A DNA stretch of 64,000 nucleotides. It comes from a virus. Of the stretch, positions 30,875 to 51,701 are shown piece by piece. Within the stretch, counting starts at the first letter, position 1. Each line of letters starts with the position of its first letter. The stretch is from positions 19,274-83,273 of IMG/VR virus record IMGVR_UViG_3300031999_000009; one strand, written 5' to 3'. The notes under the pieces were generated by a model. That model made no database searches, was not told the origin of the DNA, and saw only the letters and a program-made list of their open reading frames with translations. Made by a program: the position numbers and the translations under genes.

Positions 30875-32452
30875 ATGGCGAAGAAGATCCCTCCCGTGCC
30901 TGACGACGTGACCGTCATTGCACCCGTGCCCACCGAGAAGCCGACCGCGGCTGAGAGCGCGCTTCTCCAGGCGTTCAAGGCTGCGCGCCGCGTCTCGACG
31001 CCGATCGTGGCGATCGAGACTCCTGACGCGGCGGCCACAATCGCCATGATTCGGAAGGTGCTGAACGACAAGGCACCGACGCTCTCGTGGGATTGTGCGC
31101 GCGGCCTGAAGGGCCTCAACGATCTCGGCAAGCAGGCGATGGCCAACCTCGGTATCGACCCGCAGCTCACCGTGAACGCCACGGAGACGTTGCTGGCGTG
31201 CGAGAACCTGCCCGAATTGTCGGTGGTGTTCATGCACAACTTCCACCGTCAGGTGAACGAGGCGTCAGTTATCCAGGCGCTCTGGAACCTGCGCGACGTG
31301 TTCAAGGTCAACAAGCGGATGATCGTGCCGTTGGGCTCGAGCTTCCAGATGCCGCCGGAACTGGCCGGCGACGTCATCACCCTCGACGAACCGCTTCCGA
31401 CCCGCGAGGAGCTGTCGGCGACGCTCGACCAGCAGCACAAGAACGCGGAGCTGCCGTTGCCGTCCGAGGAAGTCAGGGAAGCAGCGTTGGACGCCCTTGT
31501 GGGGTTGTCGAGCTTCACGGCGGAGCAGGTGGCGGCGATGTCGCTCACGAAGCAGGGCGTCAACGTCGCAAAGCTGTGGGAGCGCAAGGTCAAGGCCATC
31601 CAGAACACCGACGGCCTGCGCGTGTGGCAGGGACGCCCCGGCGACACGACGATGGACGAGCTGCGCGGCATCGACAACGTGGTCGAGTTCATGCGGAAGT
31701 TGGTGCACGCCGACGCGTTCGGCGCCATCGTCTTCATCGACGAGATGGACAAGGCGTTCGCGGGTGGCATGTCCGAGCACACCGGTGACTCGGGCGTCAG
31801 CAAGGATCAGGTCGGCACGGTGCTGAGCTACATCGAGGACACGGGCTCACTCGGCGTGTTGCTGGCCGGCGTGGCTGGCACGGGCAAGACCCAGCTGGCG
31901 AAGGCCACTGGCGTGGAAGCGGGCAAGCCGGTCATCGTGTTCGACCTCGGCGGGATGAAGGGCGGCACGGTTGGCCAGTCGGAGCGCACGATTCGCGCCG
32001 CGCTCAAGGTGGTGACGGCCACGGCGGAGGGCCGCGTGCTGTTCATCGGAACGGCGAACCGGACCACGCTGTTCACGCCAGAGCTCAACCGACGGTTCCC
32101 CGACCAGTTCTTCTACGACACGCCAGACGACGCCGGTCGCTCGGCAATCTGGCCTGTCTACGCGGCGAAGAACGGACTGACGGCCTCGCAGGCGCACGTG
32201 CCGCAGGGCTTCGACGCTGGGTGGACTGGCGCGGAAATCAAGCGCGCCTGTGAGCGGGCGGCCTTGTTCGGCTGCACGGTGGTCGAGGCGGCGCGGTTCA
32301 TCATCCCGTCCAGCGTGAGCGGCAAGCGCCAGATCGAGGCGCTCCGGCACGAAGCGGCTGGTCGGTTCCTGTCCGCCAGCTACGACGGGTTCTACCAGGT
32401 GCCGCAGGCGCCACAGGTGCCCGTCCAGCAGCGGTCGATTGAGGTGCAGTGA
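30875..32452 (+). CDS. AAA+ ATPase (Ycf46-like) with permuted motif order
   Basis: IVFIDEMDK (Walker B), GVAGTGKT (Walker A), VGQSE, TAN (sensor 1), PELNRRF (Arg finger), WTGAEI; degenerate N-terminal AAA-like domain. Confidence 0.88.
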   Translation: MAKKIPPVPDDVTVIAPVPTEKPTAAESALLQAFKAARRVSTPIVAIETPDAAATIAMIRKVLNDKAPTLSWDCARGLKGLNDLGKQAMANLGIDPQLTVNATETLLACENLPELSVVFMHNFHRQVNEASVIQALWNLRDVFKVNKRMIVPLGSSFQMPPELAGDVITLDEPLPTREELSATLDQQHKNAELPLPSEEVREAALDALVGLSSFTAEQVAAMSLTKQGVNVAKLWERKVKAIQNTDGLRVWQGRPGDTTMDELRGIDNVVEFMRKLVHADAFGAIVFIDEMDKAFAGGMSEHTGDSGVSKDQVGTVLSYIEDTGSLGVLLAGVAGTGKTQLAKATGVEAGKPVIVFDLGGMKGGTVGQSERTIRAALKVVTATAEGRVLFIGTANRTTLFTPELNRRFPDQFFYDTPDDAGRSAIWPVYAAKNGLTASQAHVPQGFDAGWTGAEIKRACERAALFGCTVVEAARFIIPSSVSGKRQIEALRHEAAGRFLSASYDGFYQVPQAPQVPVQQRSIEVQ

Positions 32453-32868
32453 TGGCAGCCGCACAAGCCGGTTGGACCGACTACGCCATCCTGCAGGCGT
32501 CCTCTGGCAACGGGAAGCAGTGGAAGGTGCAGGTCAACGTCGAGGGCTTGTTCCGGTGCAACTGCCCGTCGTTCATCTTCAGCAAGATGTCGCCCAAGAC
32601 GTGCAAGCACTGCAAGCGCTGTGAGGAGCAGCGGCTGACGGAAACGAAGGTCAAGCCGGTGGCTCGTCCGGCAATCGCGCCCTACTGGGACGAGGCGATG
32701 GGCTTCCTCGATAAGATGCTGACGCAGGCCAGCGCGTCCGTGACGGCCGCACAGAAGAAGGTCATGTGCGACGTCCTGGCGACCAAGCTGGCGCTGTTCA
32801 GGCCCATGGCGGCAGCGGTGGAAGTCACCGAGGTCGTGGGCATCCGGCGGATCACGTTCGACGACTGA
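32452..32868 (+). CDS. SWIM zinc-finger protein
   Basis: CNCPSF...CKH; ends RRITFDD. Confidence 0.7.
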   Translation: MAAAQAGWTDYAILQASSGNGKQWKVQVNVEGLFRCNCPSFIFSKMSPKTCKHCKRCEEQRLTETKVKPVARPAIAPYWDEAMGFLDKMLTQASASVTAAQKKVMCDVLATKLALFRPMAAAVEVTEVVGIRRITFDD

Positions 32869-32913
32869 TCGTAAATCACCCGGCATGCGCCGGGTTCACC
32901 AAGGAGCAGGCAG

Positions 32914-33321
32914 ATGGCGAGTCTCAACAAGGTTCAATTGATTGGCAATCTCGGGCGCGACGCAGAGCTGAAGTATCTCGCGTCCGGGGCAGCGGTGGCG
33001 ACCATCAACATGGCGACCACGGAATACTGGAACGACAAGGCTGGCCAGAAGCAGGAGAAGACCGAGTGGCACCGGGTCGTCATTTGGGGCAAGACCGCGG
33101 AGGGCCTGGCCGAGTATCTCGTGAAGGGCAAGCAGATCTACGTCGAGGGCCGGCTGCAGACCCGGCAGTGGGACGACAAGGACGGCAACAAGCGCTACAC
33201 GACCGAGATCCGTGGCGATCGGGTCATCCTGCTCGGTGGTGGCAAGGGCGGCGCGGCGCACCCGGCGGCTTCCGGTGAGGAGCCAACCGGCCAGATGCCG
33301 GACGACGACATCCCGTTCTAG
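32914..33321 (+). CDS. ssb: Single-stranded DNA-binding protein
   Basis: [13 protein letters not shown]...TEWHRVV...[14 protein letters not shown]...DDIPF. Confidence 0.97.
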
Positions 33322-33325
33322 GTCG

Positions 33326-33341
33326 ATACCGCCGGCGGTAT
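33326..33341. repeat. Perfect 16-bp palindrome, copy 2
   Basis: ATACCGCCGGCGGTAT, intergenic after ssb. Confidence 0.9.
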
Positions 33342-33346
33342 GAACA

Positions 33347-33362
33347 CGTTCCACGTGGAACA
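33347..33362. promoter_or_regulatory. parS: parS-like site 2
   Basis: CGTTCCACGTGGAACA with perfect palindromic core GTTCCACGTGGAAC; 5 bp from palindrome copy 2. Confidence 0.7.
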
Positions 33363-33376
33363 CTCTGGGAGACGAC

Positions 33377-33697
33377 ATGCTGCACTACAAGCTCGACACT
33401 GACGGACAGCCTGTCGCCTGCGATCTCTTGGAGTGGGCCACGTGGTTCGAGGGCGCCGGCGCCTCACGTATCGTCGCCCAGGACATGGTCGGTGACGTGC
33501 AGGTGAGCACGGTCTTCCTCGCGCTGGACCACGACTGGTCTGGCGCGGGGCCTCCCGTGCTCTGGGAGACGATGATCTTCGGCGGACGACACTCGGACTA
33601 CCAGCGCCGCTACTCGTCGCGTGAGGCGGCCGTGGCGGGCCATGTTGAGGCGCTGGCGCTGGCGTCTGTGACACGGAACATCGAGTTGGAGGACTGA
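33377..33697 (+). CDS. Conserved phage hypothetical protein
   Basis: VSTVFLALDH...WETMIFGG...RYSS; ends RNIELED. Confidence 0.65.
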   Translation: MLHYKLDTDGQPVACDLLEWATWFEGAGASRIVAQDMVGDVQVSTVFLALDHDWSGAGPPVLWETMIFGGRHSDYQRRYSSREAAVAGHVEALALASVTRNIELED

Positions 33698-33978
33698 TGA
33701 AACGGATCACGGTGACGTGGCAGGAGACGACCACCTACGCGGTGTCGATTGTCGTGCCGGACGACTACCCGGAGACACTCGAAGAGTTCGCCTCGCCTGA
33801 GTGGAGCGCCTACCCACCGAGCGGTGATGGCGAGGAAGACTGGTGGGCCCGCGTCGAGGAGCAGTCACCTGATTGGATCCGGACTGGGTGCATTGAAGTG
33901 ACCGACCGCACGCTCACGGACCTTGAGCTCGACACGGGGCCGGAGTCCGACCACAACCCCGCCGAGCCTCCGCTCTGA
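33697..33978 (+). CDS. Acidic hypothetical protein
   Basis: TGATG-coupled; 93 aa, D/E-rich. Confidence 0.5.
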   Translation: MKRITVTWQETTTYAVSIVVPDDYPETLEEFASPEWSAYPPSGDGEEDWWARVEEQSPDWIRTGCIEVTDRTLTDLELDTGPESDHNPAEPPL

Positions 33979-33992
33979 TTCCGAGGTGACTC

Positions 33993-34163
33993 ATGACTGT
34001 TGTCGACAACGTCGTTGCAGCCTACAGACTCGCGCTGACCGTGGCCTCCTCGCGTGAGGACGTGACGAACATCATCGCCGAATTGACCCAGAGCATCCGC
34101 GCGCTCGACGTCGTGCGCCTCGAAGGGATCGAACAGCGTCGGAAGATGGGCACGCCCGCGTGA
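33993..34163 (+). CDS. Small hypothetical protein (below ORF-track cutoff)
   Basis: GAGG RBS; 56 aa, MTVVDNVVAAYRLAL... Confidence 0.45.
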   Translation: MTVVDNVVAAYRLALTVASSREDVTNIIAELTQSIRALDVVRLEGIEQRRKMGTPA

Positions 34164-34344
34164 AATTATTCGGAGCCGCCTTGGTTGCCGCCCCGTTGCT
34201 TCTTCTCACGGCCTAGTGCGCGAGTCGGGATGGCGCGTGGCGATGGCCACGTGGTTGATCGTGTCCGCCGTGGTCGCGTCGATCTCTGTCGGCGCCTGGC
34301 TCCTCGCGCACTGAAATTAGTTAAAGATTTCGGGCGTGAGGGTG

Positions 34345-34373
34345 TTGACTCCTGCCGCGATTGATAGTATCAT
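34345..34373 (+). promoter_or_regulatory. Early promoter P3
   Basis: TTGACT-N17-TATCAT. Confidence 0.85.
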
Positions 34374-34409
34374 TGTCTTATGTTGATGGAGACGATGATG
34401 GAGACAAAC

Positions 34410-35192
34410 ATGACCACTTGGGAATTCCCGAGCACCACGACAAGCGAGATTCACACCGTCACCCTGGTCGACCCGCGCACGAAGTTTCTGACGTGCACCT
34501 GCACTGGTTTCAAGTATCGCCGCGACTGCTGGCACACCAAGGCGGTCGCCGAAAAGATTTCCCCGGCGGTGGCACCGGCTGACAACAAATTTCTTCGAGC
34601 CGCGCTCGACTATCACAAGATGGGCTACCACGTGATTCCGGTCGAGCCGAACGGCAAGCGGCCACTCGTGCAGTGGAAAGATTTCATGACCGTCAAGCCG
34701 ACGCTGGGCCAGATCAAGACCTGGTGGATGCGCACCCCGAACGCCAACGTGGCGATTGTGCTCGGCCAGAACCGGTTTGCGGTGGACCTGGACGGCGGCG
34801 CCGAAGCCGAAAAATTATTGGCGGACGCGGGCATCGAGCTTCCCGCCGACGCGCCCCGCAGCAAGACAGGCGGCGGCAATCACGTGTTCCTGTCCGCGCC
34901 CACGCCGCAACCTGACCGAATCGGTCTGCTGAAGGCGGCCGAGCCGCTGGCCGGCGCACTGCCCACGCCGAAGGGCAAGCTGCGCCACGCGCAAATCGAC
35001 ATCCGCGGCCTCGGAATAATTATCGCGGCCCCGTCCGTGCACCCGAGCGGTGCCGTCTACACGTGGCTGTCGCCGCTGACGGCCACGCCGCCGATGGCGT
35101 CGGACGCGCTGCTGGAGCTCATCGCCTACGTGCCTCCGCCGCCACCGAAGAAGCCGCGGGCGCCGCGCAAGGCAAAGGTCGTGGTGTCATGA
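34410..35192 (+). CDS. SWIM finger fused to a bifunctional primase/polymerase (Prim-Pol, AEP) domain
   Basis: CTCTGF...CWH, then G..VIPV...KRP...W...PNANVAI...AVDLD...TGGGNH...DIRG...APSVHPSG..YTW. Confidence 0.85.
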   Translation: MTTWEFPSTTTSEIHTVTLVDPRTKFLTCTCTGFKYRRDCWHTKAVAEKISPAVAPADNKFLRAALDYHKMGYHVIPVEPNGKRPLVQWKDFMTVKPTLGQIKTWWMRTPNANVAIVLGQNRFAVDLDGGAEAEKLLADAGIELPADAPRSKTGGGNHVFLSAPTPQPDRIGLLKAAEPLAGALPTPKGKLRHAQIDIRGLGIIIAAPSVHPSGAVYTWLSPLTATPPMASDALLELIAYVPPPPPKKPRAPRKAKVVVS

Positions 35193-35262
35193 AGAAAATA
35201 ATTCTCCTGGCCACCTTCTGCTGGCTCGTGCTGCTGCTCGGTCAATACGCGGGGCAGCACGG

Positions 35263-35490
35263 ATGGTAGTCGCGACCTACCCGTCGTCGACTGAGCCTGG
35301 CGTCACACACACCGTCACGGTGAAGACGCGCCCCGGCACCAGGCAGGTGGCGTTGAAGTGCACGTGTAAAGGGTTCACGCGCGCGGCGCGCTGGCACTCC
35401 TGCTGGCATGTCCGCGAGGTGGCTCAACGAAATAATTATTTGACCGTGGTCGGCGGCGAGCTGTTCGGCTACACACCGGAGGCCAAATGA
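35263..35490 (+). CDS. Stand-alone SWIM zinc-finger protein
   Basis: CTCKGF...CWH. Confidence 0.65.
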   Translation: MVVATYPSSTEPGVTHTVTVKTRPGTRQVALKCTCKGFTRAARWHSCWHVREVAQRNNYLTVVGGELFGYTPEAK

Positions 35491-36635
35491 CCTGGGAGTT
35501 TGCGTCGAAGTCTAGCAGTGCTGTTCACACCGTGACGCTCCACCCCTCTGGCGAACTCGTGTGCACGTGCAGCGGCTGGCGTTTCAAGAAGCCTGGCAAG
35601 CCACGTGAGTGCACGCACATGACGGGGCTCATCAAAAAGAATTCGTGGTCACGGGACGTGAAGGGCGACCTCGTGATCATCAAAGAATCCGTCGAAAATA
35701 GTCCGAATTCGGTCGTGCCTCTCTTGACTCCGCCTGTCGATGATAGTATCATTGTTCTTGTAGGAGGGACACCAACAATGAACACAACGATGACCACCCC
35801 CACTCAGACGGCCCCGGACGCGCAGCTTGCGGTGGGCATGACCACCCCGGTGAGCGGTGCGGCGTTCAACGAAAAATATGGCGACGGCACCTGGTCGATG
35901 GACGAGAAGCTCGACGGCCACCGGTGCTTGGTCGTGAAGCGCGGCGAGGACATCAAGTGCTGGTCACGCGGCGGCGCCGGTCGTGCCAGCCTCGAAAAGA
36001 AAGTGACCCCAGCCATCCTGTCCGCCATCGCGCAGATGCCCGACGGCATCTACGACGGCGAGCTGATGATTCCCGGCGGCAACTCATGGAACGTGGTGGA
36101 CCTGGCCAGGCAGCACGAGCTGGTGGTCATCCTGTTCGACGTGCAGGAGATTCTGGGCCAGAACGTGTGCAAGGAACCACAGTCCATGCGGCGCGACCTG
36201 CTCGCGCAGGCGGTGGCGCACGTGAAGACGGACGCGGTGCGGTTGGTGGCCAGCTTCACGCCGGAGTGGGCGGTCATCGAAAAGATTTGGGCCGAGGGTG
36301 GCGAGGGCGTCATCGTCAAAAAGAATTCTGCCCCCTACCGCCCCGGCTACCGGTCGGATGCGTGGGTCAAGGTGAAGCAGCTGATGTCGGTGGTCGGCGT
36401 CATTACCGGGTTCAAGGCTGGCTCGTTCGGTCCCCACTCAGTAACCTGCGTGACCCTGGACAGCGGCGTCAAAACCCAGGTCAAGACACTGGACACCGTG
36501 ACGCTGGCGGCGATCGAAAAAAATCCCGAATCTTTCCTCGGCCACCGACTGGTGATTCAGTGCCAGCAGGTGGTGGCGTCGAGCGGCTGCCCGCGTCATC
36601 CGATGTGGGACCACATGGCGGGAGACACGGAATGA
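35487..36635 (+). CDS. ATP-dependent DNA ligase with N-terminal SWIM finger (alternative internal start at 35778)
   Basis: CTCSGW...CTH; ligase motifs EKLDG, YDGEL, LFDV, EGVIVK, WVKVK, PRHP. Confidence 0.9.
   Translation: MTWEFASKSSSAVHTVTLHPSGELVCTCSGWRFKKPGKPRECTHMTGLIKKNSWSRDVKGDLVIIKESVENSPNSVVPLLTPPVDDSIIVLVGGTPTMNTTMTTPTQTAPDAQLAVGMTTPVSGAAFNEKYGDGTWSMDEKLDGHRCLVVKRGEDIKCWSRGGAGRASLEKKVTPAILSAIAQMPDGIYDGELMIPGGNSWNVVDLARQHELVVILFDVQEILGQNVCKEPQSMRRDLLAQAVAHVKTDAVRLVASFTPEWAVIEKIWAEGGEGVIVKKNSAPYRPGYRSDAWVKVKQLMSVVGVITGFKAGSFGPHSVTCVTLDSGVKTQVKTLDTVTLAAIEKNPESFLGHRLVIQCQQVVASSGCPRHPMWDHMAGDTE
35724..35752 (+). promoter_or_regulatory. Early promoter P4 (inside the ligase ORF)
   Basis: TTGACT-N17-TATCAT followed by AGGAGG and in-frame ATG at 35778. 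Confidence 0.8.
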
Positions 36636-36949
36636 AAAATAAATTCCGCGCACTGCTCGCCCACTTGCGGCATCGCCTGTTTCACGGTGAGCACCATCAC
36701 CTGCAGGAGCACGGCGACCGCGAAATATTTCTTCGATGCTCACTGTGTGGGCTTCGATCGCCAGGCGTGCTCCTGGGGCCAGGGCCTCGTCCGGCGCTGG
36801 CTGGCGACCCCGTCCGTGCCAAGGCTCTTGTCGCCTCTGTCTCGCGCATCGTGCCACCGCTCGTGGCCGCGCCAGTGACAGCAGACGAGATTCGGTGGTT
36901 GGTCCACGAAGACGAAGACGACTTTCCTTCGATGCGACAGGTTCATTAG
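36632..36949 (+). CDS. Hypothetical protein (His-rich, CxxC)
   Basis: ATGA overlap with the ligase stop. Confidence 0.45.
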   Translation: MKNKFRALLAHLRHRLFHGEHHHLQEHGDREIFLRCSLCGLRSPGVLLGPGPRPALAGDPVRAKALVASVSRIVPPLVAAPVTADEIRWLVHEDEDDFPSMRQVH

Positions 36950-36958
36950 GAGACGACG

Positions 36959-37417
36959 ATGAAGGTATCAGAGGTCGGCTTGCTCGACGAATGCTTCACG
37001 CACATCGCGGAAGACGGAAAGCAGACCAGCTACGCGGTCACCAAGCTGGTTGAGTATCTGGCCGCCCACAATTGGGAGAAGGTGGTGGTGCCCGTCGAGG
37101 AGTTCCACGCGGCCTACTGTGTCAACAACCGCGGTGTCGAGCCTGACCGCATCGCTCGCCTGCTTCAGTGCGTGCCGGCGTTGGTGCGGCCGATCGTGTT
37201 CATCCACATGCCGGACAACTCGCACCTGTTGGTGGATGGCACGCACCGCTACGTGGCGCTCTTCGGGCTGAATCGAACGGAAATCTTCGCGCACATGGTG
37301 CCGTGGGACATCGCTAAGGACTTCATCCTCGAGGACATTCCCAACACGACACCCGAGCGGTTGATGCAGCACTCGCACCTCTCGCAACTTCGCGAGCTTC
37401 TCGGGATCGATCGGTAG
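36959..37417 (+). CDS. ParB/Srx-like N-terminal domain protein
   Basis: PIVF...LLVDGTHRY motif. Confidence 0.6.
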   Translation: MKVSEVGLLDECFTHIAEDGKQTSYAVTKLVEYLAAHNWEKVVVPVEEFHAAYCVNNRGVEPDRIARLLQCVPALVRPIVFIHMPDNSHLLVDGTHRYVALFGLNRTEIFAHMVPWDIAKDFILEDIPNTTPERLMQHSHLSQLRELLGIDR

Positions 37418-37568
37418 ATGCCCACGCTGGTCATCACGATGGCAAATGGGTCCGTCCAGCGGCACAAGGGATGGACGCTGGAAATGGCCGAGCGGCTCAA
37501 GGCATCCTGGGCGCAGATCACCCCTCCACCGGTCTTCACGATCGCGTGGGAGGACATAGGAGACGACG

Positions 37569-37874: not shown

Positions 37875-37986
37875 GCATGTCAAGGTTCGTGGGAGTTGTG
37901 ATCGGTGCGTGTTTCGTCGTGGGCTGCCTCGCGCTGGCGATCGCCTTCGCCGCGTGGTCCGTCCATCTGGCGTGGAGCCAATTTCA

Positions 37987-38292: not shown

Positions 38293-38293
38293 G

Positions 38294-39677: not shown

Positions 39678-40112
39678 ATGAGTGCCAAGAGAAAGGTTCA
39701 GATTCCGTCCATTGGCGACCTGTTGGTGCTCGCCGCACCGTGGCAATTCCACGTGGTGAATGAGCATCGGAACGCCACGCTTGTCGCTCACATGGGGAAA
39801 ACAGTGCCAGGCCGGTCCTATTACCCGCTGGGCGTCACCCAAGCCGCGTCATGGCACCCGTTGCCTTCGACGCTCTGGTGCACGATCCCCTCCGGCGCCG
39901 TGCTCCGCGTCTCGCGTATCTACATCCGCGCTGGTGCGGCCGCCTACGACTCAGTGACGTTCTGGTGGAAGCCATCGCCGAAGGCGAAATCGGTTCGATT
40001 CTTCGCTCGACTGCCAGATGTGAACAAGATGTCGGTGCGCTCTGATGCCTGGACCGCCCGAGACGAGGCCGACCCGGTCCTTGGTGCCCGAGCGATCGAA
40101 TTGGAGGAGTGA
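39678..40112 (+). CDS. Conserved phage hypothetical protein
   Basis: GAGGAG RBS; IP.IGD...EHRN...RIYIR...YDSVTF...RFFA; ends RAIELEE. Confidence 0.6.
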   Translation: MSAKRKVQIPSIGDLLVLAAPWQFHVVNEHRNATLVAHMGKTVPGRSYYPLGVTQAASWHPLPSTLWCTIPSGAVLRVSRIYIRAGAAAYDSVTFWWKPSPKAKSVRFFARLPDVNKMSVRSDAWTARDEADPVLGARAIELEE

Positions 40113-43295: not shown

Positions 43296-43357
43296 CGTTT
43301 GGTAAGGTGATGACGACCACTTCGGCAACCACGGTGACTACGAAGGAGACGACGACA

Positions 43358-44158: not shown

Positions 44159-44224
44159 TCAAGATGGTAAACCCGCAACTGGGAGCAGGTGCGCCCTGTT
44201 CCCCTCTCTCTCTGGAGGAGGACC

Positions 44225-44985: not shown

Positions 44986-46109
44986 GTCACTTTTCCGTGT
45001 TGGTCATCGGCGAGGACCACGAGGCGCAGCTCGCGCCGTTCCACGAGTTCGAGTGCACGGGACGCGTCGACGAATACGTGCAGACCGTGGACAAGACCGA
45101 GGAAGCGCGAGCGACCTACGTCAAGGACACCACGCGCATGCTGAAACTCGTGGACGGCACGCTCGTGAGTCCCTACGTCGGAGGGAACTACAACCCAGGC
45201 TACCTGCGTCCGCCGACCATCGAGGAGCGCGAGGCCATCCAGAAGGCTGGCCCTCTTGGACTCGGCGGCAAGCCTCCGTTCGAAACGGTGGGCTACGGCG
45301 ACAGCGTGCGCGTCGTGCAGTTCCCGGCCGGCGCCGAAGACATCCAGGTGCCGACCGTGGATCACGAGTCGTTCGCCGAGTGGGCAGCGGGCTACTACGG
45401 GGCGCCCATCGCGCACGGCATGTCGGAGGTTGACCTCGATGACACGCACAAATACGGCTACACGCTCGTCGAGGTCGACTCGGTGCCCTCGGTGCAGGTG
45501 TTCGACCGGACCAACCCGAACCGGAAGTGGGATTGGTATTCGGTCGGCGGTCGCTGGACGGGCTACTTCAAGGTCAAGGCGGGCGCGGACGCCGCCGTTG
45601 GTGATCCCGGCATCCTGACGGAGCCGGCTGAGAAAGGGTGGGCCGACGTCTGCCTCAAGGGCGACATCGACATCGTCGGAATGCGCGCCGAAGCCATGGC
45701 CACCGCCGCCGAGAACTTCGACCGCATCCACGCCATCCTTGACGACCGACCGCTGATCGAGCCGTGGGACCACGTGCGCGTGCGCTTCACCGAGCAGGGT
45801 ATCGACGCGGCTCGCAAGTTCTACAACGCCCAGGAGGGGCTCGTGGCCTTGCGTGAGGCCAAGGAGAGTGTTTGGAACATCGAGCCCTTCCTTGTGCAGC
45901 GGGACGAGTTCATCGAGACGGCGCGGCAGAACGCGCTCGTGCCGTTCGCGCTCGTGATGGACGGCCAGTGGTTCGAGTCCGGCTCGATGGGGTGGTGGGG
46001 CATGGTGTCTGACGAGAAGAACCAGGCCGAGTGGATGGCGATGGTGAACCAGCTCCTCGACGGCTTGCCGGACGGCACGCTGATCACAGCCGTGGACTGT
46101 CACATATGA
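44982..46109 (+). CDS. Conserved phage hypothetical protein
   Basis: MSHFSVLVIG...NPN.KWDWY.VGGRW...G.MGWWG...VDCHI. Confidence 0.7.
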   Translation: MSHFSVLVIGEDHEAQLAPFHEFECTGRVDEYVQTVDKTEEARATYVKDTTRMLKLVDGTLVSPYVGGNYNPGYLRPPTIEEREAIQKAGPLGLGGKPPFETVGYGDSVRVVQFPAGAEDIQVPTVDHESFAEWAAGYYGAPIAHGMSEVDLDDTHKYGYTLVEVDSVPSVQVFDRTNPNRKWDWYSVGGRWTGYFKVKAGADAAVGDPGILTEPAEKGWADVCLKGDIDIVGMRAEAMATAAENFDRIHAILDDRPLIEPWDHVRVRFTEQGIDAARKFYNAQEGLVALREAKESVWNIEPFLVQRDEFIETARQNALVPFALVMDGQWFESGSMGWWGMVSDEKNQAEWMAMVNQLLDGLPDGTLITAVDCHI

Positions 46110-46672
46110 GCGGCGGGGCACGCGGGCATTCGGTGGGCGGCGCCGTGCGAGGGTATCGAATCTTCGAGTGGTCCGGGCCCGATGTGGATAACGGCAGTCG
46201 GAAGCCGTTTTCCACGGCCGCGGAGGGCTCCTTCGACAAGGAGTGGCACGCGACACTCGCTGACGCGCAGGCGTGGATCGCCGCCGCGCCAACGCTGACG
46301 AAGTTGCGAGTGGAGTTCACCGCCTACGTCGTCGCTGGCAGCGCGACAGAAGACGAGCTGGAAGAGTGGGTGCGGTTCAACCTTCACGCCACGGGGTCGC
46401 TCACGAAGAGCCCCGTTTCTGAGAAGGAGCTCGAGGCGGTCGACGTCTCCGTCGACATCGAGGACTGTCGATGATGAAGTTTCGCGTCGTGGCGCATCGC
46501 ACGGCCGTCTACGAAGTCGAGGCCGAAACGAGCGAAGAGGCCATCGACCTCATGATCGGCGGCGCAGGTGACGAAGTGGATGGGTCCACCGAGGACATCA
46601 AAGCGATACCGATCTGCGGCAACTGCGACGCTGACCTCGTAGACGGTCGGTGTCCACAGTGTGGAGACAAGG

Positions 46673-47152
46673 ATGGCTGATTTCACGGGCACGCTCCTCT
46701 CGACCGGCTTCCGCGCGAAGGACAACTCGGCCTTCTTGACCGACCCGGAGGCGCAGCGCGCCATGGACCACATCGTGAAGGGCGAGGGCGGGTTCTTCGA
46801 CTGCCACGATGGGTGGTGGGCGTTCGGGTGGTATGGCCAGTATCCGGGGTCCGTCCTGCAGTTGACCTGCCAAACCTGCGACGGCGAAGGCGCCACGTGC
46901 TCAGAGTGTGACGGCGAGGGAAACGTCGAGGTTGACCTGACCGACATCGTGCAGCGCCACATCCACGATGACGACATTTGCGCGATCGCCGTCAGCGGCA
47001 ACGAGAAGCTCCGCTACAACGGTGGCACCACGGCCTACGTGTCGACCAAGGGCACCGTCTACGTCGATGGTGGCGCCGAGTGGGGCACGCACCTCACCCG
47101 CGCGGATCTCAAGGGGATCGCGGAGAAGATGAAGAAGCTGGAGGACTTGTGA
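46673..47152 (+). CDS. Hypothetical protein with a DnaJ-type CxxCxGxG zinc finger insert
   Basis: CQTCDGEG..CSECDGEG. Confidence 0.55.
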   Translation: MADFTGTLLSTGFRAKDNSAFLTDPEAQRAMDHIVKGEGGFFDCHDGWWAFGWYGQYPGSVLQLTCQTCDGEGATCSECDGEGNVEVDLTDIVQRHIHDDDICAIAVSGNEKLRYNGGTTAYVSTKGTVYVDGGAEWGTHLTRADLKGIAEKMKKLEDL

Positions 47153-47490
47153 CTCAACACATCGTCTTGGTGCCCATCGACGGTTCGCGCCCCTCGCAGG
47201 TCATCGCCCGAGGGTCAGGCGTTGTGTGCGAGAGAACCGCCTGGGAGGCCGGCGGGAAAGTGAAGGCTTACTACGAGGGCAATCTCTACGGGTCCGAGAA
47301 CATGGTGCGCTTCGAGGACCGCGTGCTTCACGCCTCTGGGCGACTGGCGCGGCACTATCCGACGGTGGCGTTCGGCGTGTGGGACAGTTCGGACTTCGTC
47401 GCGGCTGGCACGTTCGACTTCTCCGATGACTTCAAGCAGCGGCACCTGGAAATCACGGACGTGTTCGCGCTGGCGCGGTGGTCGCTGTGA
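47149..47490 (+). CDS. Hypothetical protein
   Basis: GTGA-coupled at both ends. Confidence 0.45.
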   Translation: MTQHIVLVPIDGSRPSQVIARGSGVVCERTAWEAGGKVKAYYEGNLYGSENMVRFEDRVLHASGRLARHYPTVAFGVWDSSDFVAAGTFDFSDDFKQRHLEITDVFALARWSL

Positions 47491-47873
47491 AGTTCGACCC
47501 GGCCATCTTCAAGCAGCGCGCGCCGTGTGCTGACTGTCCGTTCCGTCGCGAGGGTGGCGTGCGGCACAGCCTGCGGATGATGGCCAGCTACATCAGCTAC
47601 TTCATCGGGCCTGTGCCCGCGACGTTCCCGTGTCACAAGTCGGTGCCCAAGTCTGACCCGAGGAACAAGTGGTCGGCGTGGCAGGACGGTCAAGTGATCT
47701 GCGCGGGTGGGCTGATCTTCGCGCTCAAGCAGCAGCACTGCAACAAGCTCATGACGGCGGGCTTGATGAGTGGGGCCTACGACCCGGCGCAGCACCTGGA
47801 GGTGGACGCCGTATTCAACACGCCGGCTGAGATGCTGGCGTCAGCGGAGGGTGACGATGCGGACAAGGGATGA
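47487..47873 (+). CDS. Cys-rich protein (DUF6283-like)
   Basis: PCADCPFR...FPCHKS...ICAG. Confidence 0.55.
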   Translation: MKFDPAIFKQRAPCADCPFRREGGVRHSLRMMASYISYFIGPVPATFPCHKSVPKSDPRNKWSAWQDGQVICAGGLIFALKQQHCNKLMTAGLMSGAYDPAQHLEVDAVFNTPAEMLASAEGDDADKG

Positions 47874-48315
47874 CAAGACCATGGCGGCGCTGATTCCGCG
47901 CCGGCTCTACATCATTCGGTCGAGGAATCTGCTGGCCGGCGTGTGGAATCCGGAGCTTCGCGGGTTCATGGGCGTGCGGACCAAGTTCGACCACCGCTTC
48001 CTGGCAGTCGAAAACCACACTGAGACAGGCCCGCCCTTTGGCACCGCGTGGGAGCTGGAAGACACGGGGATCGACCTGCCGCCAGACATCGGCATGCACC
48101 AGAGCGAGCCGACGGCCTGCGAGCACTGCCGTCAGCCTGTGCGGTGGTCAGGTCCGCCCGCGCCTGCGCCATGGGTCCACGAGGAGCCTGCCTACGATGT
48201 CGGTTGCACGGCCTCGCCGCAGTCGAGACAGAACGAGCCGCTCTACCAGTGGCTGGAAGCTCAAGAGGCCGCACTTGGCGAGGAGCGCCTCGAGAATCCG
48301 AAGAGGAACGTATGA
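47857..48315 (+). CDS. Hypothetical protein
   Basis: SRNL..GVW...GF.G.RTKF motif; CxxC. Confidence 0.5.
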   Translation: MRTRDDKTMAALIPRRLYIIRSRNLLAGVWNPELRGFMGVRTKFDHRFLAVENHTETGPPFGTAWELEDTGIDLPPDIGMHQSEPTACEHCRQPVRWSGPPAPAPWVHEEPAYDVGCTASPQSRQNEPLYQWLEAQEAALGEERLENPKRNV

Positions 48316-48671
48316 GGTTGCCTGACGCCATCGAGCGCGACCTCCAGGCCATCGAGGCCGAGTATTTCTCACGCGGTGGACAGCAGGCGGGGACGCCACG
48401 GTTGCGCGCCCTTCGCGCGTCTCTTCAGATTGCGTTCCAGCAATTGCACTACCAGTATGGATTCGTTCCGACGGCCGTGCTGTCCGGGTCCGAGGCGCGG
48501 CTGGTGCTGGAGGCCATCGACAGCCATCTCTACTGGCAGTTGGCCGAGTCGAACAACCGGAACAATGGGGACGTGATCGCGGACACGGAGGAGATGCGGC
48601 CCTTCCGCGAGCTGGAAGCCAGGCTTGAGAACAATCTTCGCGGGTTCGACGCCGTAAAGATTCCCAAATAA
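48312..48671 (+). CDS. Hypothetical protein
   Basis: GAGG RBS, ATGA overlap. Confidence 0.45.
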   Translation: MRLPDAIERDLQAIEAEYFSRGGQQAGTPRLRALRASLQIAFQQLHYQYGFVPTAVLSGSEARLVLEAIDSHLYWQLAESNNRNNGDVIADTEEMRPFRELEARLENNLRGFDAVKIPK

Positions 48672-48685
48672 ATAGTCCACAGGGC

Positions 48686-48714
48686 TTGACTCGCTGCCCG
48701 ATTGATAGTATCAT
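48686..48714 (+). promoter_or_regulatory. Early promoter P7
   Basis: TTGACT-N17-TATCAT; next ORF ATG at 48721 could be leaderless. Confidence 0.85.
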
Positions 48715-48720
48715 TCTCTT

Positions 48721-48969
48721 ATGGTCAACAGCACACGTAAGCTCTCATTGGTTAGCAGGCGCATCCTGGGCATTCGCGAGGACGAGCTCGCGCCCGAGGT
48801 GCCACCTGCGCAGTGGGGTGTGCGGATGAACAACGTCCCGGTCTTCATGGGGCCGAACCTGCACTGGGTGGATGTCACTCGCGCATTTCGGTTCGACTCC
48901 CCCGAGCTTGCCCAGTCCTACGCGGACAACATGGGTTACTCGGACGTCGTCACAGTGGAGGCGTTGTGA
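48721..48969 (+). CDS. Hypothetical protein (possibly leaderless)
   Basis: ATG 6 nt after the -10 box of P7; no RBS. Confidence 0.4.
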   Translation: MVNSTRKLSLVSRRILGIREDELAPEVPPAQWGVRMNNVPVFMGPNLHWVDVTRAFRFDSPELAQSYADNMGYSDVVTVEAL

Positions 48970-49211
48970 GCGAGCACACCTTCCGCATCGAGGACGGGCA
49001 CTTGCGCTTCGTCTACGACGACGCGGTGGCGGAGCTACTCGACGAGGGCACGGTGGCGGTCTGCCGTGTCAGCCACGTGGAGCCAGCAGAGGGCGGCGGA
49101 TGGACGGCCGACATGAGTCCGGTGGATGGTCCCGTGTTGGGGCCGTTCCAATTGAGGCAGCAGGCGCTCGACGCCGAGCGTGCCTGGTTAACGAAAGAGA
49201 GGGGATTGTGA
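48966..49211 (+). CDS. Conserved hypothetical protein of the AAA/DUF1257/DUF2997 module
   Basis: R.SHVEP...W.AD.SPV.GP.LGPF..R..AL.AE.AWL. Confidence 0.6.
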   Translation: MSEHTFRIEDGHLRFVYDDAVAELLDEGTVAVCRVSHVEPAEGGGWTADMSPVDGPVLGPFQLRQQALDAERAWLTKERGL

Positions 49212-49651
49212 GTCACGTAGCAGACGTCGATATCAAGTTCCGCGACTTGGCCGCCTGCGCAGCCGCAGCGAAGGCCCTGGGCGGGGAGTTCATGGAGGGC
49301 CAGCGGACGCACAAGTGGTATGGCCGGTTCATGAACGACTGGAACTCGCAGGACGCCGCGGCGAAGCGGCGCGACCCGAAGACCTTCGGGAAGTGCGACC
49401 ACGCCATTCGGTTCCCCGGCGTGGACTACGAGATTGGGCTCTGCAAGGAGCCCGATGGCACCTTCACCGCCGTCTACGATTCGTGGGGCAGCGGTCAGGG
49501 CATCGTCAAGGCGTGCGGCGGCCTGAAGCTGCCGTTCCTGGCGAACGAATACGCGGCGGCGGTCACGACGCGGATGCTGGCTCGGAAGGGGTTCCGGGTC
49601 ACGCGCACGGTCGACAAGCAGGGCGCAATTGTCCTGAAGGCGGTGAACTGA
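49208..49651 (+). CDS. DUF1257 (Ycf35)-like protein
   Basis: MSHVA.VD....DL....AA...LG...YEIGL......D.W...Y......ARKGF.V. Confidence 0.65.
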   Translation: MSHVADVDIKFRDLAACAAAAKALGGEFMEGQRTHKWYGRFMNDWNSQDAAAKRRDPKTFGKCDHAIRFPGVDYEIGLCKEPDGTFTAVYDSWGSGQGIVKACGGLKLPFLANEYAAAVTTRMLARKGFRVTRTVDKQGAIVLKAVN

Positions 49652-49818
49652 TGGCGTCTCTCACGGTGCGGATTGTCGACGGCGAGGCGGTGGTTACCGC
49701 GGACGGATCGCCGACGTCCTGCAAGGCGGCTCACGACGTGGAGGCGGCGCTCGGGAAGGTCACGAAGTCTGTGGCCACGGGCACCAAGGCCGAGACGACC
49801 AAGCTGGTGCAGAAGTGA
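49651..49818 (+). CDS. DUF2997-like small protein
   Basis: 55 aa; I.DG...V...G...SC......EAALG; TGATG-coupled. Confidence 0.55.
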   Translation: MASLTVRIVDGEAVVTADGSPTSCKAAHDVEAALGKVTKSVATGTKAETTKLVQK

Positions 49819-50126
49819 ACCGGGGCCCCGAGCCGGCTTCGAATGTCGTGCTGATGTGCGCGGAGCACGCGTCGAAGCCGGACCCCAAGTGGCATGGATG
49901 GCCCTTGGCGAAATACGTGGGACTCCACGTCAAGCGGTCCTTCCCGATCGCTGGGCGCGTCGGGAACGAGCACATGTGGGTGCGCGTCAAGTTCGTAACG
50001 CCCATAGGGCAGCTGACGGGCGTCCTCGACAATGATCCGCAGTTCGACGTCGGCGTGATGTGCGGCGACATGGTCACCTTCGACGTGACCGACATCGAAG
50101 ACGTGATAGTATCAAAGGAAGGGTGA
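49815..50126 (+). CDS. DUF2314-like hypothetical protein
   Basis: EHMWV.V.....G.LDNDP......GD.V.F...DIED. Confidence 0.5.
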   Translation: MNRGPEPASNVVLMCAEHASKPDPKWHGWPLAKYVGLHVKRSFPIAGRVGNEHMWVRVKFVTPIGQLTGVLDNDPQFDVGVMCGDMVTFDVTDIEDVIVSKEG

Positions 50127-50131
50127 CGACG

Positions 50132-51082
50132 ATGACGGCGACGACGATTTCATCCGGCGAACTAGTTGCGGCCAAGACCATCTGCCTCGCGCTCAAAGTG
50201 GGCAGCTTCGGCAACACGAAGCAAGCCTCCCTTGCGGGGGTGCAGTGGGACGTGAACCAGGGCGCCGCGGACGATGACCCCAGCTCCCACCAGCCAGACA
50301 AGACGCTGCTGCGGCTGTCGAAGACCCTGCTCGATTCGCCAGAACTGACGGCGGTCAAGAAGGCCGACCGCGAGCTGGCCGTGGCCATTCGCACCATGGC
50401 GTTCTCGTCGCTGTTCAAGGGTGGCGTCTACATGCTGCCGTTGGCGATGGTGCCCACCGCAGAGGAGTTGCTGAAGGGTGCGATTGCTCGGCGCACGGTG
50501 TTGGTCGAGGCGGCCTGCGCGGCTTACCAGACCCGCATCGACGAAACGGCCGAGCGCCTGGGCGTGACGTTCAACGCGGGCGACTACCCGAGCCCAGAAC
50601 GCTTCCGGGCGTGTTTCTACCTCGAATACTCCTACGTGACATTCGAGACACCGTCACGGTTGAAGGCCGTCAGCGCCGCGTTGTTCCAGGCCGAGACGGA
50701 GAAGGCTCGCGTCCGGTTGGAGTCCGTCGCCGAGGAGTGTCAGCAGACGATGCGCGCTGGGCTCCTGTCGCTGGTCGATCACCTGGCCGAACGGTTGACG
50801 CCGTCCGACGATGGCAAGGCGAAGCGCCTGTCGAACAGCACCATCGGCAACCTGAACGATTTCCTCGCGACGTTCGAGCTTCGGAACGTGACCGACGACG
50901 CCCAACTCGGCGACATCGTTGCGAAGGCTCGTCAGGTCATGCAGGGCCTGGATCACAAGTCGCTGAAGAGCGATGACCTGATTCGGCAGAAGGTCGTGGC
51001 TGAACTGTCCGCCTTGACGGCCGCACTGGACCCGCTGATTGTCGAGAAGGGCACCCGGTCCATCTCGTTCGAGGATGAGTAA
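50132..51082 (+). CDS. DUF3150-like helical protein
   Basis: SK.LLD...G.Y.LP...F...DYP...R..F; ends RSISFEDE. Confidence 0.55.
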   Translation: MTATTISSGELVAAKTICLALKVGSFGNTKQASLAGVQWDVNQGAADDDPSSHQPDKTLLRLSKTLLDSPELTAVKKADRELAVAIRTMAFSSLFKGGVYMLPLAMVPTAEELLKGAIARRTVLVEAACAAYQTRIDETAERLGVTFNAGDYPSPERFRACFYLEYSYVTFETPSRLKAVSAALFQAETEKARVRLESVAEECQQTMRAGLLSLVDHLAERLTPSDDGKAKRLSNSTIGNLNDFLATFELRNVTDDAQLGDIVAKARQVMQGLDHKSLKSDDLIRQKVVAELSALTAALDPLIVEKGTRSISFEDE

Positions 51083-51260
51083 CGTGGCCGGGCTGGCCTG
51101 TATCGACTGCTCCATGCAGGCGTTGGCGGACGGGAAGCCCGTGCCCTATTTCTACGAGACGGCCGAAGAGCACATGGCTCGCGTGCATCCGGACCTAGAG
51201 CTGACGCGCCTCAACCGGGCAAAACTCGAGCGCCAGCTGCGCGAGAAACTGAAGTGACAG

Positions 51261-51701
51261 ATGCCACTGCAACCAACGGCGTCGACGTGGGTCATGAAGG
51301 ACCAGGACGGCGTGCCACACTTCGTGCGCGTCGTCGACATGACCGACACGCACCTCTGGCGCTGGGTCCGCTTCTTCAGGCGGAAGTGGCGAGACAAGGG
51401 GTTCAACGGATCGGACGAGGCGCTCGATCAGGCCATTCGACAGAGCATCGTCACGGCGCCGGCGATCTACGCCGAAGCCTTCAAGCGGAAGGTCGTGCCA
51501 GGTTTGGCCGACCCCGCTCCGAAGGCCCAGCCGAAAGTGCTCCAGCTGTTGTCTCTTGCTTCCTTGATCTCCGTGATGGCTCCACCCGTTGTGGCGCCCA
51601 AGAAGAAACGTCCTCGGTCGGTGGCGACGGTGGCGAAGGCGACGGTGGCGAAGGTCGAAGCTGCTCCAGGCAAACGCCGCATCACTTTAGACGAGGATTA
51701 A
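51261..51701 (+). CDS. Hypothetical protein
   Basis: W..KD.....DMTDTHL motif; ends RRITLDED. Confidence 0.55.
   Translation: MPLQPTASTWVMKDQDGVPHFVRVVDMTDTHLWRWVRFFRRKWRDKGFNGSDEALDQAIRQSIVTAPAIYAEAFKRKVVPGLADPAPKAQPKVLQLLSLASLISVMAPPVVAPKKKRPRSVATVAKATVAKVEAAPGKRRITLDED

Follow-up and report, generated by a model that had tools for sequence, protein, structure and literature searches.

Which described systems use short C-terminal peptides as docking signals? C-terminal tails anchor proteasomal ATPases to the 20S ring and HslU to HslV; proteasome-activator tails take the HbYX form in PAN, Rpt, archaeal Cdc48 and Blm10 and the GQYL form in mycobacterial Mpa and Bpa. HbYX and GQYL peptides are defined by a Tyr in the penultimate position that follows a hydrophobic residue, right at the C-terminal end. 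The tails of T4 gp43, gp33 and gp55 bind the sliding clamp gp45, and the bacterial clamp motif is QL[SD]LF. The AAA ATPase Vps4 recognizes ESCRT-III MIM motifs, of which MIM1 is helical, through its MIT domain, and the tail of SspB binds the ClpX N-domain. A gene set of Ycf46 (AAA+), Ycf35 (DUF1257) and DUF2997 is found in cyanobacteria and plastids, and DUF3150 occurs on plasmids; the literature listings describe no function or shared tail for the Ycf46/DUF1257/DUF2997/DUF3150 set.

How does the phage locus compare? The window analyzed here is a 64,000-nucleotide stretch of the genome of an uncultured soil phage (IMG/VR record IMGVR_UViG_3300031999_000009, positions 19,274 to 83,273), in which several unrelated proteins and an ATPase end in Arg-x-Ile-x-Leu/Phe, or a close variant, usually followed by acids (Table 1). 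As in proteasome activators, a short peptide sits on the flexible end of an AAA+ ATPase and recurs on unrelated proteins, all of which may here, too, dock into one kind of pocket; the phage ATPase has a predicted Cdc48/p97 tandem-AAA fold. Judged by the consensus, however, the tails (...ITFDD, ...IELED, ...IEVQ) are not HbYX or GQYL peptides: they lack the Tyr, replace hydrophobic-Tyr-X with the Arg-x-Ile-x-Leu/Phe motif plus acids, and tolerate 0–12 residues past the core. With clamp-binding tails they share a C-terminal peptide common to unrelated phage proteins, and recruitment to a ring-shaped hub is a feature of clamp systems; the invariant residue, however, is an Arg with hydrophobics at i+2 and i+4, which does not fit the consensus QL[SD]LF, and the tail is a feature of an ATPase/DUF3150 module, not of polymerases. 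If the ATPase reads the tail, the arrangement would resemble MIM and SspB, where a C-terminal peptide delivers clients or adaptors to an AAA+ unfoldase. To our knowledge, Vps4 and ClpX do not themselves carry the recruiting peptide, whereas the phage ATPase ends in the same motif as its candidate clients. The alternating pattern of the tail also suggests an extended strand, unlike helical MIM1. Finally, as in the Ycf46/Ycf35/DUF2997 set, the same protein families adjoin each other.

Two further candidates were rejected. The PP1 docking consensus RVxF, [RK]-x(0,1)-[VI]-x-[FW], is fitted by RRITF and RSISF, but IELED, IELEE, ITLDED and IEVQ place Leu or Val where the consensus has an aromatic residue. 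An SSB tip is an acidic run followed by Ile-Pro-Phe-COOH; only the phage SSB ends this way, and the acids of the tags follow the hydrophobics. No match to a 20S/HslV-type peptidase (PF00227, E ≤ 0.01), a sliding clamp (PF00712) or a PPP phosphatase (PF00149) was found in the phage record, which is 68% complete by CheckV, so that gene absences carry little weight.

A shared C-terminal tail on unrelated phage proteins

The six C-termini reported in an earlier note on this DNA were re-read exactly as given there (Table 1). Are such endings more frequent than expected? Gene calling with a custom codon model over the whole 83,273-bp record yielded 116 proteins (24,396 aa), with six matches to the strict pattern R.I.[FL][DE][DE], five of which end 0–1 residue from the C-terminus. 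The sixth, RTITLDD, is internal (residue 176 of protein 11637–12800) and is not kept in the homologue, which reads KRLVTAAD there. When each protein was shuffled 2000 times, the motif fell within the last nine residues of 0.001 proteins on average (maximum 1), compared with five observed, and hits anywhere in a protein averaged 0.1, compared with six; the enrichment at C-termini that the note had proposed checking is thus borne out.

Table 1. Tailed proteins of the phage and their untagged neighbors (window positions)
Feature	Position	Strand	C-terminus and remarks
Tail-tip genes: N-half and three paralogous C-halves	11637..24052	+	end PKRFK or GKRVR; not counted as tagged
Cdc48/p97-like tandem-AAA ATPase (predicted), 536 aa	30842..32452	+	ends QQRSIEVQ; motif R-S-I-E-V-Q at 32432-32449
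138-aa Cys/His-rich protein, SWIM-like by eye	32452..32868	+	ends GIRRITFDD; tag R-R-I-T-F-D-D at 32845-32865
SSB	32914..33321	+	ends DDDIPF; untagged conserved module neighbor
106-aa protein, function not assigned	33377..33697	+	ends VTRNIELED; tag R-N-I-E-L-E-D at 33674-33694
144-aa protein, phrog_22676 (no assigned function)	39678..40112	+	ends GARAIELEE; tag R-A-I-E-L-E-E at 40089-40109
81-aa module protein	48966..49211	+	untagged
DUF1257-like protein, 147 aa	49208..49651	+	untagged; candidate reader
DUF2997-like protein, 55 aa	49651..49818	+	untagged; candidate reader; directly after DUF1257-like gene
DUF3150-like protein, 319 aa	50123..51082	+	ends GTRSISFEDE; tag R-S-I-S-F-E-D-E at 51056-51079
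135-aa protein with Pro/Ala/Val/Lys linker, function not assigned	51294..51701	+	ends GKRRITLDED; tag R-R-I-T-L-D-E-D at 51675-51698

Because the pattern was defined post hoc from the same data, we took a 122-kb relative (G001; 172 called proteins, 37,047 aa) as a replicate. All five of its matches to R.I.[FL][DEN][DE] lie 0–5 residues from the C-terminus, and for two of the five proteins the 83-kb phage has no tagged counterpart. Tails are kept among homologues (40–78% identity) while linkers diverge. Homologues of the SWIM-like protein in G001 and contig L005, 44% identical overall, end VRRITFDED and VRRITFDD, and the G001 homologue of the 106-aa protein (41% identity) ends TRRIDLD. The 135-aa protein aligns with its G001 homologue by BLAST over residues 5–67 only, yet both end tagged (ARRIDLNEE in G001). 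For the 144-aa protein, which has no homologue in G001, the PHROG match spans residues 6–119 only, placing the tail outside the family core. Copies of the tail also differ in their codons (CGG/CGA/CGC, TTC/TTG/TTA, GAC/GAG/GAT), so it is not a DNA repeat, and selection acts on the peptide. Overall, unrelated proteins share these tails as a genuine, selected peptide signal.

Two details of the earlier description need revision. The "SWIM protein" has a Cys/His pattern visible by eye and no Pfam match even at E ≤ 10, nor any PHROG match. The observation that no tail was seen on structural proteins does not extend to relatives of the phage: the fused 872-aa tail-tip homologue in G001 ends LRRIDLEDE and its counterpart in L005 ends QRRIDLDE. 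The PKRFK and GKRVR ends of the phage's own tail-tip genes might represent a shortened, basic version of the tag.

The ATPase/DUF3150 module in phages, a plasmid and Acidobacteriota

What are the proteins of the module? The ATPase matches Pfam AAA (E 5e-12) in its second domain only. Its AlphaFold2 (AF2) model (mean pLDDT 93.8) has NVL, p97, Cdc48 and Rix7 as best Foldseek matches, with both AAA domains included (E about 1e-12; alignments of 537–612 columns, TM 0.3–0.5), and so is predicted to hold two AAA-fold domains in one chain, as in Cdc48/p97-type tandem-AAA proteins. JGI names one ATPase homologue "SpoVK/Ycf46/Vps4 family". In 106 of 120 ATPase homologues the last 22 residues contain a tail core, R-x-[ILVMFA]-x-[hydrophobic or Ala], with only 1–2 residues past it in 83 of the 106, and the tail Arg (R531) is invariant in 114 sequences. 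That Arg is 21–26 residues past an upstream anchor, presumed to be a conserved G-R-F and regex-matched in 79/103. The ATPase ending had been described as a looser version of the tag; it is instead a family-wide ending, R-x-I-x-[LV]-[EQN] near the C-terminus.

The DUF3150-like protein itself gave no match to PF11348. Ten of its 81 homologues carry PF11348 in a precomputed column, a homologue from Acidobacteriota reaches 23.0 bits where 24.9 are required, and tblastn with homologue P0065 finds plasmid genes annotated DUF3150. The tail core is present in 67 of the 81, and its Arg (R312), invariant in 65 sequences, is among 18 invariant columns. The DUF1257-like protein (997 representatives at E ≤ 0.001) falls below the PF06868 cut-off (E 0.14; 12.9 versus 22.2 bits), but a profile from its relatives matches the annotated DUF1257 of a Candidatus Manganitrophus plasmid at 1e-47, an Acidobacteriota module protein matches PF06868 at 4e-10, and its nearest Atlas clusters are named DUF1257 (score 0.93). 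The DUF2997-like protein has no direct Pfam match; an iterated profile ties it to a 62-aa ORF annotated DUF2997 in the Manganitrophus record and also finds short ORFs at 42 of the 67 loci from Acidobacteriota.

These genes recur together. On the Manganitrophus plasmid, AAA, DUF1257, DUF2997 and DUF3150 are annotated in a row. Of the 67 Acidobacteriota loci, 52 have the ATPase gene upstream of DUF3150, 42 contain a DUF1257-like ORF and 42 a DUF2997-like ORF, and 47 carry an SSB downstream of DUF3150, mostly directly. Homologues of the 81-aa protein occur in G001, Tunturi_3, the Manganitrophus plasmid and one of eight distant viral loci. ATPase, DUF1257, DUF2997 and DUF3150 form a module in phages, the plasmid and the Acidobacteriota loci, and the tail system, which the plasmid and these loci carry too, is not peculiar to the 83-kb phage. 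The earlier note had named this module as one candidate, and the tails are indeed tied to it. The hosts of all the elements found are soil bacteria, mostly Acidobacteriota. This gene module is widespread and, judging from the literature listings, unstudied.

Do the tails of the two core proteins change together? ATPases ending RSIEV[QN] pair with DUF3150 proteins ending R-x-I-S-F-E-D, GRAFRxxE with GRKFRFNEE, KRMFREAT with RKFRFEEAA, and GKRVVNIKKGK with RAVKLPxKK, the acids being lost from both members of the last pair. ATPase and DUF3150 tails co-vary lineage by lineage. Other bearers vary between elements. An unrelated 847-aa protein of the plasmid ends KRKIRLSPGS, resembling the DUF3150 of the same element (KRKIRILPE...), and in three distant complete phages (G002–G004) the tail is on the ATPase, DUF3150 and one or two other proteins. 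Within 10 kb around the Acidobacteriota loci, no neighbor besides ATPase and DUF3150 has a clear tail. Copying onto accessory proteins thus appears, so far, in phages and one plasmid only.

A proposed docking peptide and its candidate readers

What could the tail do? We consider it slightly more probable than not that the motif is a docking peptide, with its invariant Arg, hydrophobics at i+2 and i+4 and usually acids thereafter, that would gather its bearers at a single binding site in the module. The tail is the ancestral C-terminal ending of two module core proteins, the Cdc48/p97-like ATPase and DUF3150, with DUF1257 and DUF2997 as their gene partners in a mobile-element module. In this reading, phages have transferred it to accessory proteins that vary from one phage to another: the SWIM-like protein and three others in the 83-kb phage, and the tail-tip protein in relatives. 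The ATPase itself is our preferred reader, tentatively. A groove on it would hold its own tail and accept tagged proteins in competition, so that these become clients or adaptors of the unfoldase. In the AF2 monomer, the ATPase tail has pLDDT 85 (residues 521–530) and 72 (531–536), compared with 48–73 for the N-terminal 30 residues, and the DUF3150 tail (311–319) is below 50. This contrast is an indirect, weak hint at the ATPase as reader; conserved tails can score moderate pLDDT without docking. Mutual information paired the acidic tail position most strongly with ATPase Lys362, but the association was not significant on phylogenetically independent pairs (4.2 changing the same way, 0 opposite, 12.8 unchanged; median p 0.125). 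Of the earlier proposal of a tag read by one hub, the shared peptide and its link to the module stand; the hub, degron and capsid-loading roles remain proposals.

Co-variation of the tails would fit any common reader equally, the DUF1257/DUF2997 pair or a host protein included. Next most likely after the ATPase, though unlikely in itself, is a DUF1257/DUF2997 receptor, onto which the ATPase would dock via its C-terminal tails, with DUF3150 and the accessory proteins using the same pockets. The pair are untailed partners of the tailed ATPase and DUF3150 in the phages, the plasmid and the 42 Acidobacteriota loci; a nearly invariant N-terminal Met-Ser-His in DUF1257-like proteins fits a functional N-terminus; and on a Cupriavidus plasmid, DUF3150 is untailed, lies beside a different ATP-binding protein and a VWA protein, and has no DUF1257 or DUF2997 within the annotated 24.7 kb. 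However, the moderate confidence with which the monomer model places the ATPase tail is easier to reconcile with a groove on the ATPase, and our search for DUF1257 gave no fold or solved relative. It is improbable that the tail addresses proteins to a host factor (a protease as degron, the sliding clamp or another hub) with module proteins merely frequent bearers. The lack of a clamp, proteasome-type peptidase or metallophosphatase gene in the phage record would suit this reading, weakly given its completeness, as would the shared soil-bacterial hosts. But tail dialects shift between elements of one phylum, and within an element the ATPase and DUF3150 shift jointly, as expected of an element-encoded reader rather than a conserved host hub, and the motif resembles neither QL[SD]LF nor the consensus of known ClpX and Lon tags.

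Packaging or assembly of tagged proteins into the particle would account for the tagged tail-tip proteins of G001 and L005; we regard such a virion-loading signal as very improbable, since the tail is conserved on ATPase and DUF3150 in the plasmid and in 67 chromosomal loci, where the identified neighbors are SSB and a radical-SAM protein, and most bearers lie in the presumed replication/early-type region of the phage. Scarcely credible, and largely refuted, is a nucleic-acid by-product (overlapping ribosome-binding sites or a DNA/RNA element at gene ends) or chance. In five of the six tailed genes, the Shine-Dalgarno site of the next gene, which starts within 10 nt, lies in the acidic codons (GGAGG/GAGGA-like sites, 5–12 nt before the downstream start), and genes with a close downstream neighbor more often end in two acids (10/56 versus 3/57). 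Against this, the SWIM-like gene is fully tagged despite a 45-nt gap and no GGAGG, codons differ among copies, homologues in other gene neighborhoods retain the tail, and shuffled proteins yield almost none. Shine-Dalgarno overlap could add to the acidity of the tails, while leaving R-x-I-x-[FL] unexplained.

Tails in the phage and its relatives

How widespread is the ending R-x-I-x-[FL]-[DE]-[DE] among the proteins of this phage, and is it a property of the peptide? Of the 83,273-bp virus record, the window covers the right-hand 64 kb, and nearly all genes of the phage lie on the + strand. Gene calling with a codon model built from the long open reading frames (ORFs) of the genome itself gave 116 genes encoding 24,396 residues, and the six C-termini listed in an earlier note were confirmed to the letter. 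The strict pattern R.I.[FL][DE][DE] matches six times in these residues, with five matches ending 0–1 residue from a C-terminus. In 2,000 within-protein shuffles, the motif fell within the last nine residues of a mean of 0.001 proteins (maximum 1), against 5 observed, which bears out the C-terminal enrichment that the note had proposed to check. An internal match, RTITLDD in the N-half tail-tip gene, is not kept in the homologue and was taken as chance.

Table. Features in this phage (window positions) and endings of the orthologues in G001, a 122-kb relative.
Feature	Position	G001 ending
Tandem-AAA ATPase	30842-32452	NRSIEVN
SWIM-like protein (SWIM-type segment)	32452-32868	VRRITFDED
106-aa protein	33377-33697	TRRIDLD
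144-aa protein	39678-40112	
DUF3150-like protein	50123-51082	NRHISFEDEDAVA
135-aa protein	51294-51701	ARRIDLNEE
Further SWIM-type segments	34380-35192; 35263-35490; 35487-36635	
Tail-tip N-half gene	11637-12800	
Stop/start junction, PKRFK-stop-MARIG	12798-12803	
Stop/start junction, GKRVR-stop-MARIL	20615-20620 (stop/ATG boundary at 20617/20618)	
DUF1257-like Met-Ser-His	49208-49216	
Sigma-70-like promoters	~30.5k; 34.3k; 41.95k; 43.3k; 48.7k	

A repeat at the DNA level, or a by-product of ribosome-binding sites, could in principle give rise to such an ending. In five of the six tagged genes, the acidic codons also harbour a Shine-Dalgarno-like site of a neighbour whose start lies downstream within 10 nt, and two-acid endings are somewhat commoner in closely followed genes (10 of 56 vs. 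3 of the 57 others). Overlapping Shine-Dalgarno sites may add to the acidity of the tail; they cannot produce R-x-I-x-[FL], and the SWIM-like gene carries the full tag despite a 45-nt gap behind it. Synonymous codons differ among the copies, indicating that conservation acts on the peptide rather than on any DNA or RNA element. On these codon differences and the shuffling result, we rejected a DNA-level origin.

The nearest named phage, Tunturiibacter phage Tunturi_3 (a cultured relative; host Tunturiibacter psychrotolerans X5P2), shares 31–34% protein identity, and closer relatives in IMG/VR share 69–78%. One of the latter, G001 (122,115 bp, 172 called proteins), was examined over its full length. 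Conservation among homologues, a point on which the earlier note had staked its reading, was found in five G001 orthologues (ATPase, SWIM-like, 106-aa, DUF3150-like, and 135-aa proteins), with diverged linkers ahead of the tail. The BLAST alignment of the 135-aa protein to its homologue covers residues 5–67 only, yet the tag ends both. All five matches to R.I.[FL][DEN][DE] in G001 lie 0–5 residues from a C-terminus. Two proteins of G001 are new bearers—a 237-aa protein and an 872-aa tail-tip protein—and the 144-aa protein has no homologue there; the set of accessory bearers thus turns over. Each of three distant complete phages (G002–G004) has the tail on its ATPase and DUF3150 protein, plus one or two additional bearers.

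The 872-aa protein is a fusion of the N-half encoded at 11637-12800 here and a C-half represented here by three paralogues of 1132–1462 aa, and the tail-tip protein of a second relative (contig L005) is likewise tagged. In these two relatives the tail is thus not confined to non-structural proteins, which suggests that a machine reading it would also act on virion parts. The four tail-tip genes of this phage end in PKRFK or GKRVR and were not counted as tagged. These two endings may represent a short, basic variant of the tag. At two tail-tip junctions, an in-frame stop (TAG in the first) is immediately followed by an ATG, possibly reflecting stop read-through or a recent split.

Family-wide conservation and co-variation

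Both constant bearers keep the family core, R-x-[ILVMFA]-x-[hydrophobic or Ala], over long distances. At E ≤ 1e-10, 471 homologues of the ATPase were found; among the best 120 of these (42–95% identity), 106 carry the core, typically as G-R-x-I-[ED]-[LV]-[ENQ], and in 83 of the 106 it is followed by just one or two residues. R531 does not vary across 114 sequences. The ATPase tail, which had been described as a looser version, is thus a canonical form. Its Arg lies 21–26 residues past an upstream anchor, assumed to be a conserved G-R-F, in 79 of 103 sequences. For the DUF3150-like protein we collected 81 homologues, down to 31% identity (PF11348 is matched by 10), and the core falls within the last 22 residues of 67, typically as T-R-x-I-[TS]-F-[DE]-[DE] or S-R-K-F-R-F-D-E. 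An alignment of 65 sequences has 18 invariant columns, the tail Arg among them, and this Arg stands exactly six residues past the last helix in 41 of 48 sequences. Judged from these sequence comparisons, the tail of this uncharacterised Cdc48-like ATPase module is a genuine docking-type peptide at the C-terminus, both conserved and transferable.

Table. Tails of the ATPase and DUF3150 proteins by group of elements.
Group	ATPase	DUF3150	Remark
This phage group	RSIEV[QN]	R-x-I-S-F-E-D	
Bryobacterales elements	GRAFRxxE	GRKFRFNEE	
Third group	KRMFREAT	RKFRFEEAA	
Terriglobia elements	RRV[MI]R[DE]L...PPSKSE	SRKFRFDE	
Two distant viral contigs	GKRVVNIKKGK	RAVKLPxKK	Acids lost from both tails

What reads the tail? 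The earlier note had proposed a tag system served by a single hub, a reading that is supported in part: its peptide survives as a conserved, transferable ending of the ATPase module, and the hub is a proposal. A conserved host protein could serve as such a hub. However, the tails of the two unrelated proteins co-vary within one element, as a shared, element-encoded reader predicts, which speaks against a conserved host hub. We lean towards docking of the tails at one common site of the module. Within this common-site reading, the ATPase is the tentatively preferred reader, and DUF1257/DUF2997 the less likely one.

In the AlphaFold2 monomer model of the ATPase, pLDDT is 85 for residues 521–530, 72 for residues 531–536, and 48–73 for the N-terminal 30 residues, whereas the DUF3150 tail (311–319) falls below 50 in its own model. 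This contrast in pLDDT is expected if the ATPase body has a groove for the tail, and it hints at one. Mutual information between ATPase tail and body ranks highest the pair formed by the acidic tail position and Lys362, just past the Walker A helix. Lys362 accompanies Glu/Asp at that position in 58 of 69 sequences and is otherwise mostly Ile/Val, a sensible charge pattern; tested on phylogenetically independent pairs, the association falls short of significance (median p 0.125; 4.2 pairs concordant, 0 discordant, 12.8 unchanged), leaving Lys362 as a lead only. A complex prediction, in which ATPase residues 1–520, the DUF1257-like and DUF2997-like proteins, and, as partner, the C-terminal 40 residues of the DUF3150-like protein were supplied as alignments, scored 0.01 against a mark of 0.32, a value that counts neither for nor against binding.

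The ATPase model (mean pLDDT 93.8) matches NVL, p97, Cdc48, and Rix7 across both AAA domains, of which Pfam recognises the second only. The DUF3150-like model (pLDDT 89.6) is mainly helical, and no known fold was recognised in it: Foldseek returned nothing at E ≤ 0.001, and the matches from VIA-align, over residues 179–312 with Z about 9, were all to generic four-helix bundles. Neither the DUF1257-like nor the DUF3150-like family gave a meaningful match in profile searches of solved structures, and the tagged accessory proteins have no Pfam and no informative PHROG match. No clamp, proteasome-type peptidase, or metallophosphatase was found in the phage record (68% complete by CheckV). Among 121 DUF1257-like proteins, Met-Ser-His at the extreme N-terminus hardly varies and, on sequence grounds, fits a functional N-terminus, either a metal site or a nucleophile exposed by loss of Met.

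A more ambitious reading, to which we give little credence, is that the tail is both address and switch, the programmable client signal of a phage-borne unfoldase module that includes DUF1257. With two hydrophobic residues as its anchor, the invariant Arg would extend into the ATPase, much as flexible peptides of ParB-type partners reach into ParA-type ATPases. Any protein acquiring the seven residues would become a client that turns on the Cdc48-like unfoldase, Met-Ser-His could mark an N-terminal nucleophile, and phages, plasmids, and Acidobacteriota elements would have in the module a new, programmable machine for remodelling or degrading proteins.

The nearest precedents for a shared docking tail come from other systems. 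Unrelated activators dock on the proteasome through HbYX/GQYL tails, the HslU tail docks on HslV, T4 proteins carry clamp-binding tails, and Vps4 is recruited by MIM-MIT. The principle is common to all of these, but motif, families, and receptor differ, and the tail does not carry the defining residues of those motifs. In the papers searched, titles and abstract openings mention no shared tail and no function for DUF3150, DUF1257, or DUF2997, and titles on Ycf46 and phage offered nothing relevant. If true, a movable seven-residue ending that marks proteins for one machine would give a simple guide to which phage proteins act together and a first functional clue for four families (this ATPase clade, DUF1257, DUF2997, and DUF3150) common in soil phages, plasmids, and Acidobacteriota, with the 471 ATPase homologues and 997 DUF1257-like representatives. 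The question can be addressed with peptides, and Tunturi_3 is in culture.

The module on plasmids and in Acidobacteriota

Annotated AAA ATPase, DUF1257, DUF2997, and DUF3150 genes are adjacent on a Ca. Manganitrophus plasmid, where they adjoin a JAB gene and a PRTRC cassette. The DUF3150 protein ends in KRKIRILPEAQEAVA and an unrelated 847-aa protein in AKRKIRLSPGS. Searched by tblastn against plasmids, the DUF1257 of this plasmid matched only three Manganitrophus records. In cyanobacteria, Ycf46 is accompanied by DUF1257 and DUF2997 and not by DUF3150. On two plasmids (CP114559.1 and NZ_AP025173.1), the DUF3150 gene lies about 10–12 kb or less from a PRTRC (ParB-related, ThiF-related) cassette, and on one of them a JAB gene is immediately upstream of the ATPase. 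Cupriavidus plasmid pMTS2 was set aside; its DUF3150 lacks such a tail and has a different ATPase and a VWA protein as neighbours.

Scanning a single genome for each species gave 67 loci, nearly all from Acidobacteriota and often several per genome (e.g., four each in MAG SPRUCE 387 and MFD05580.bin.1.127). The ATPase is upstream in 52 of the 67, at 40–43% identity to that of this phage in most of these, and a single-stranded DNA-binding protein (SSB) gene is downstream, mostly directly, in 47. Iterated profiles found DUF1257-like and DUF2997-like ORFs in 42 loci each, as well as in Tunturi_3 and the plasmid; one Acidobacteriota locus matches Pfam DUF1257 at 4e-10 and has a radical-SAM protein between module genes. 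The ATPase-DUF3150-SSB element includes a small radical-SAM/4Fe-4S protein (Pfam Fer4_12, 3e-26) beside DUF1257/DUF2997 and is possibly mobile. Within 10 kb in the 67 loci, no other ORF is clearly tagged, as screened on all ORFs, the gene caller having performed poorly there. Around gp97 of Mycobacterium phage Catdawg, an ATPase relative at 25% identity, 49 proteins show no clear shared tail, and profiles found no DUF1257-, DUF2997-, or DUF3150-like ORF in the same 24-kb stretch.

Two further patterns recur in the phage. Four neighbouring proteins, among them the tagged SWIM-like protein, begin with a similar Cys/His-rich (SWIM-type) segment; the group includes a prim-pol (Pfam SWIM 5.6e-5, Prim-Pol 2e-26) and a 382-aa protein with a G001 homologue, and the segment resembles another module shared among replication proteins. 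A sigma-70-like promoter that occurs repeatedly (TTGACA ... TAGAAT), visible as recurrent reverse-strand ORFs containing 'MILSI/GVNT', probably marks early transcription units.
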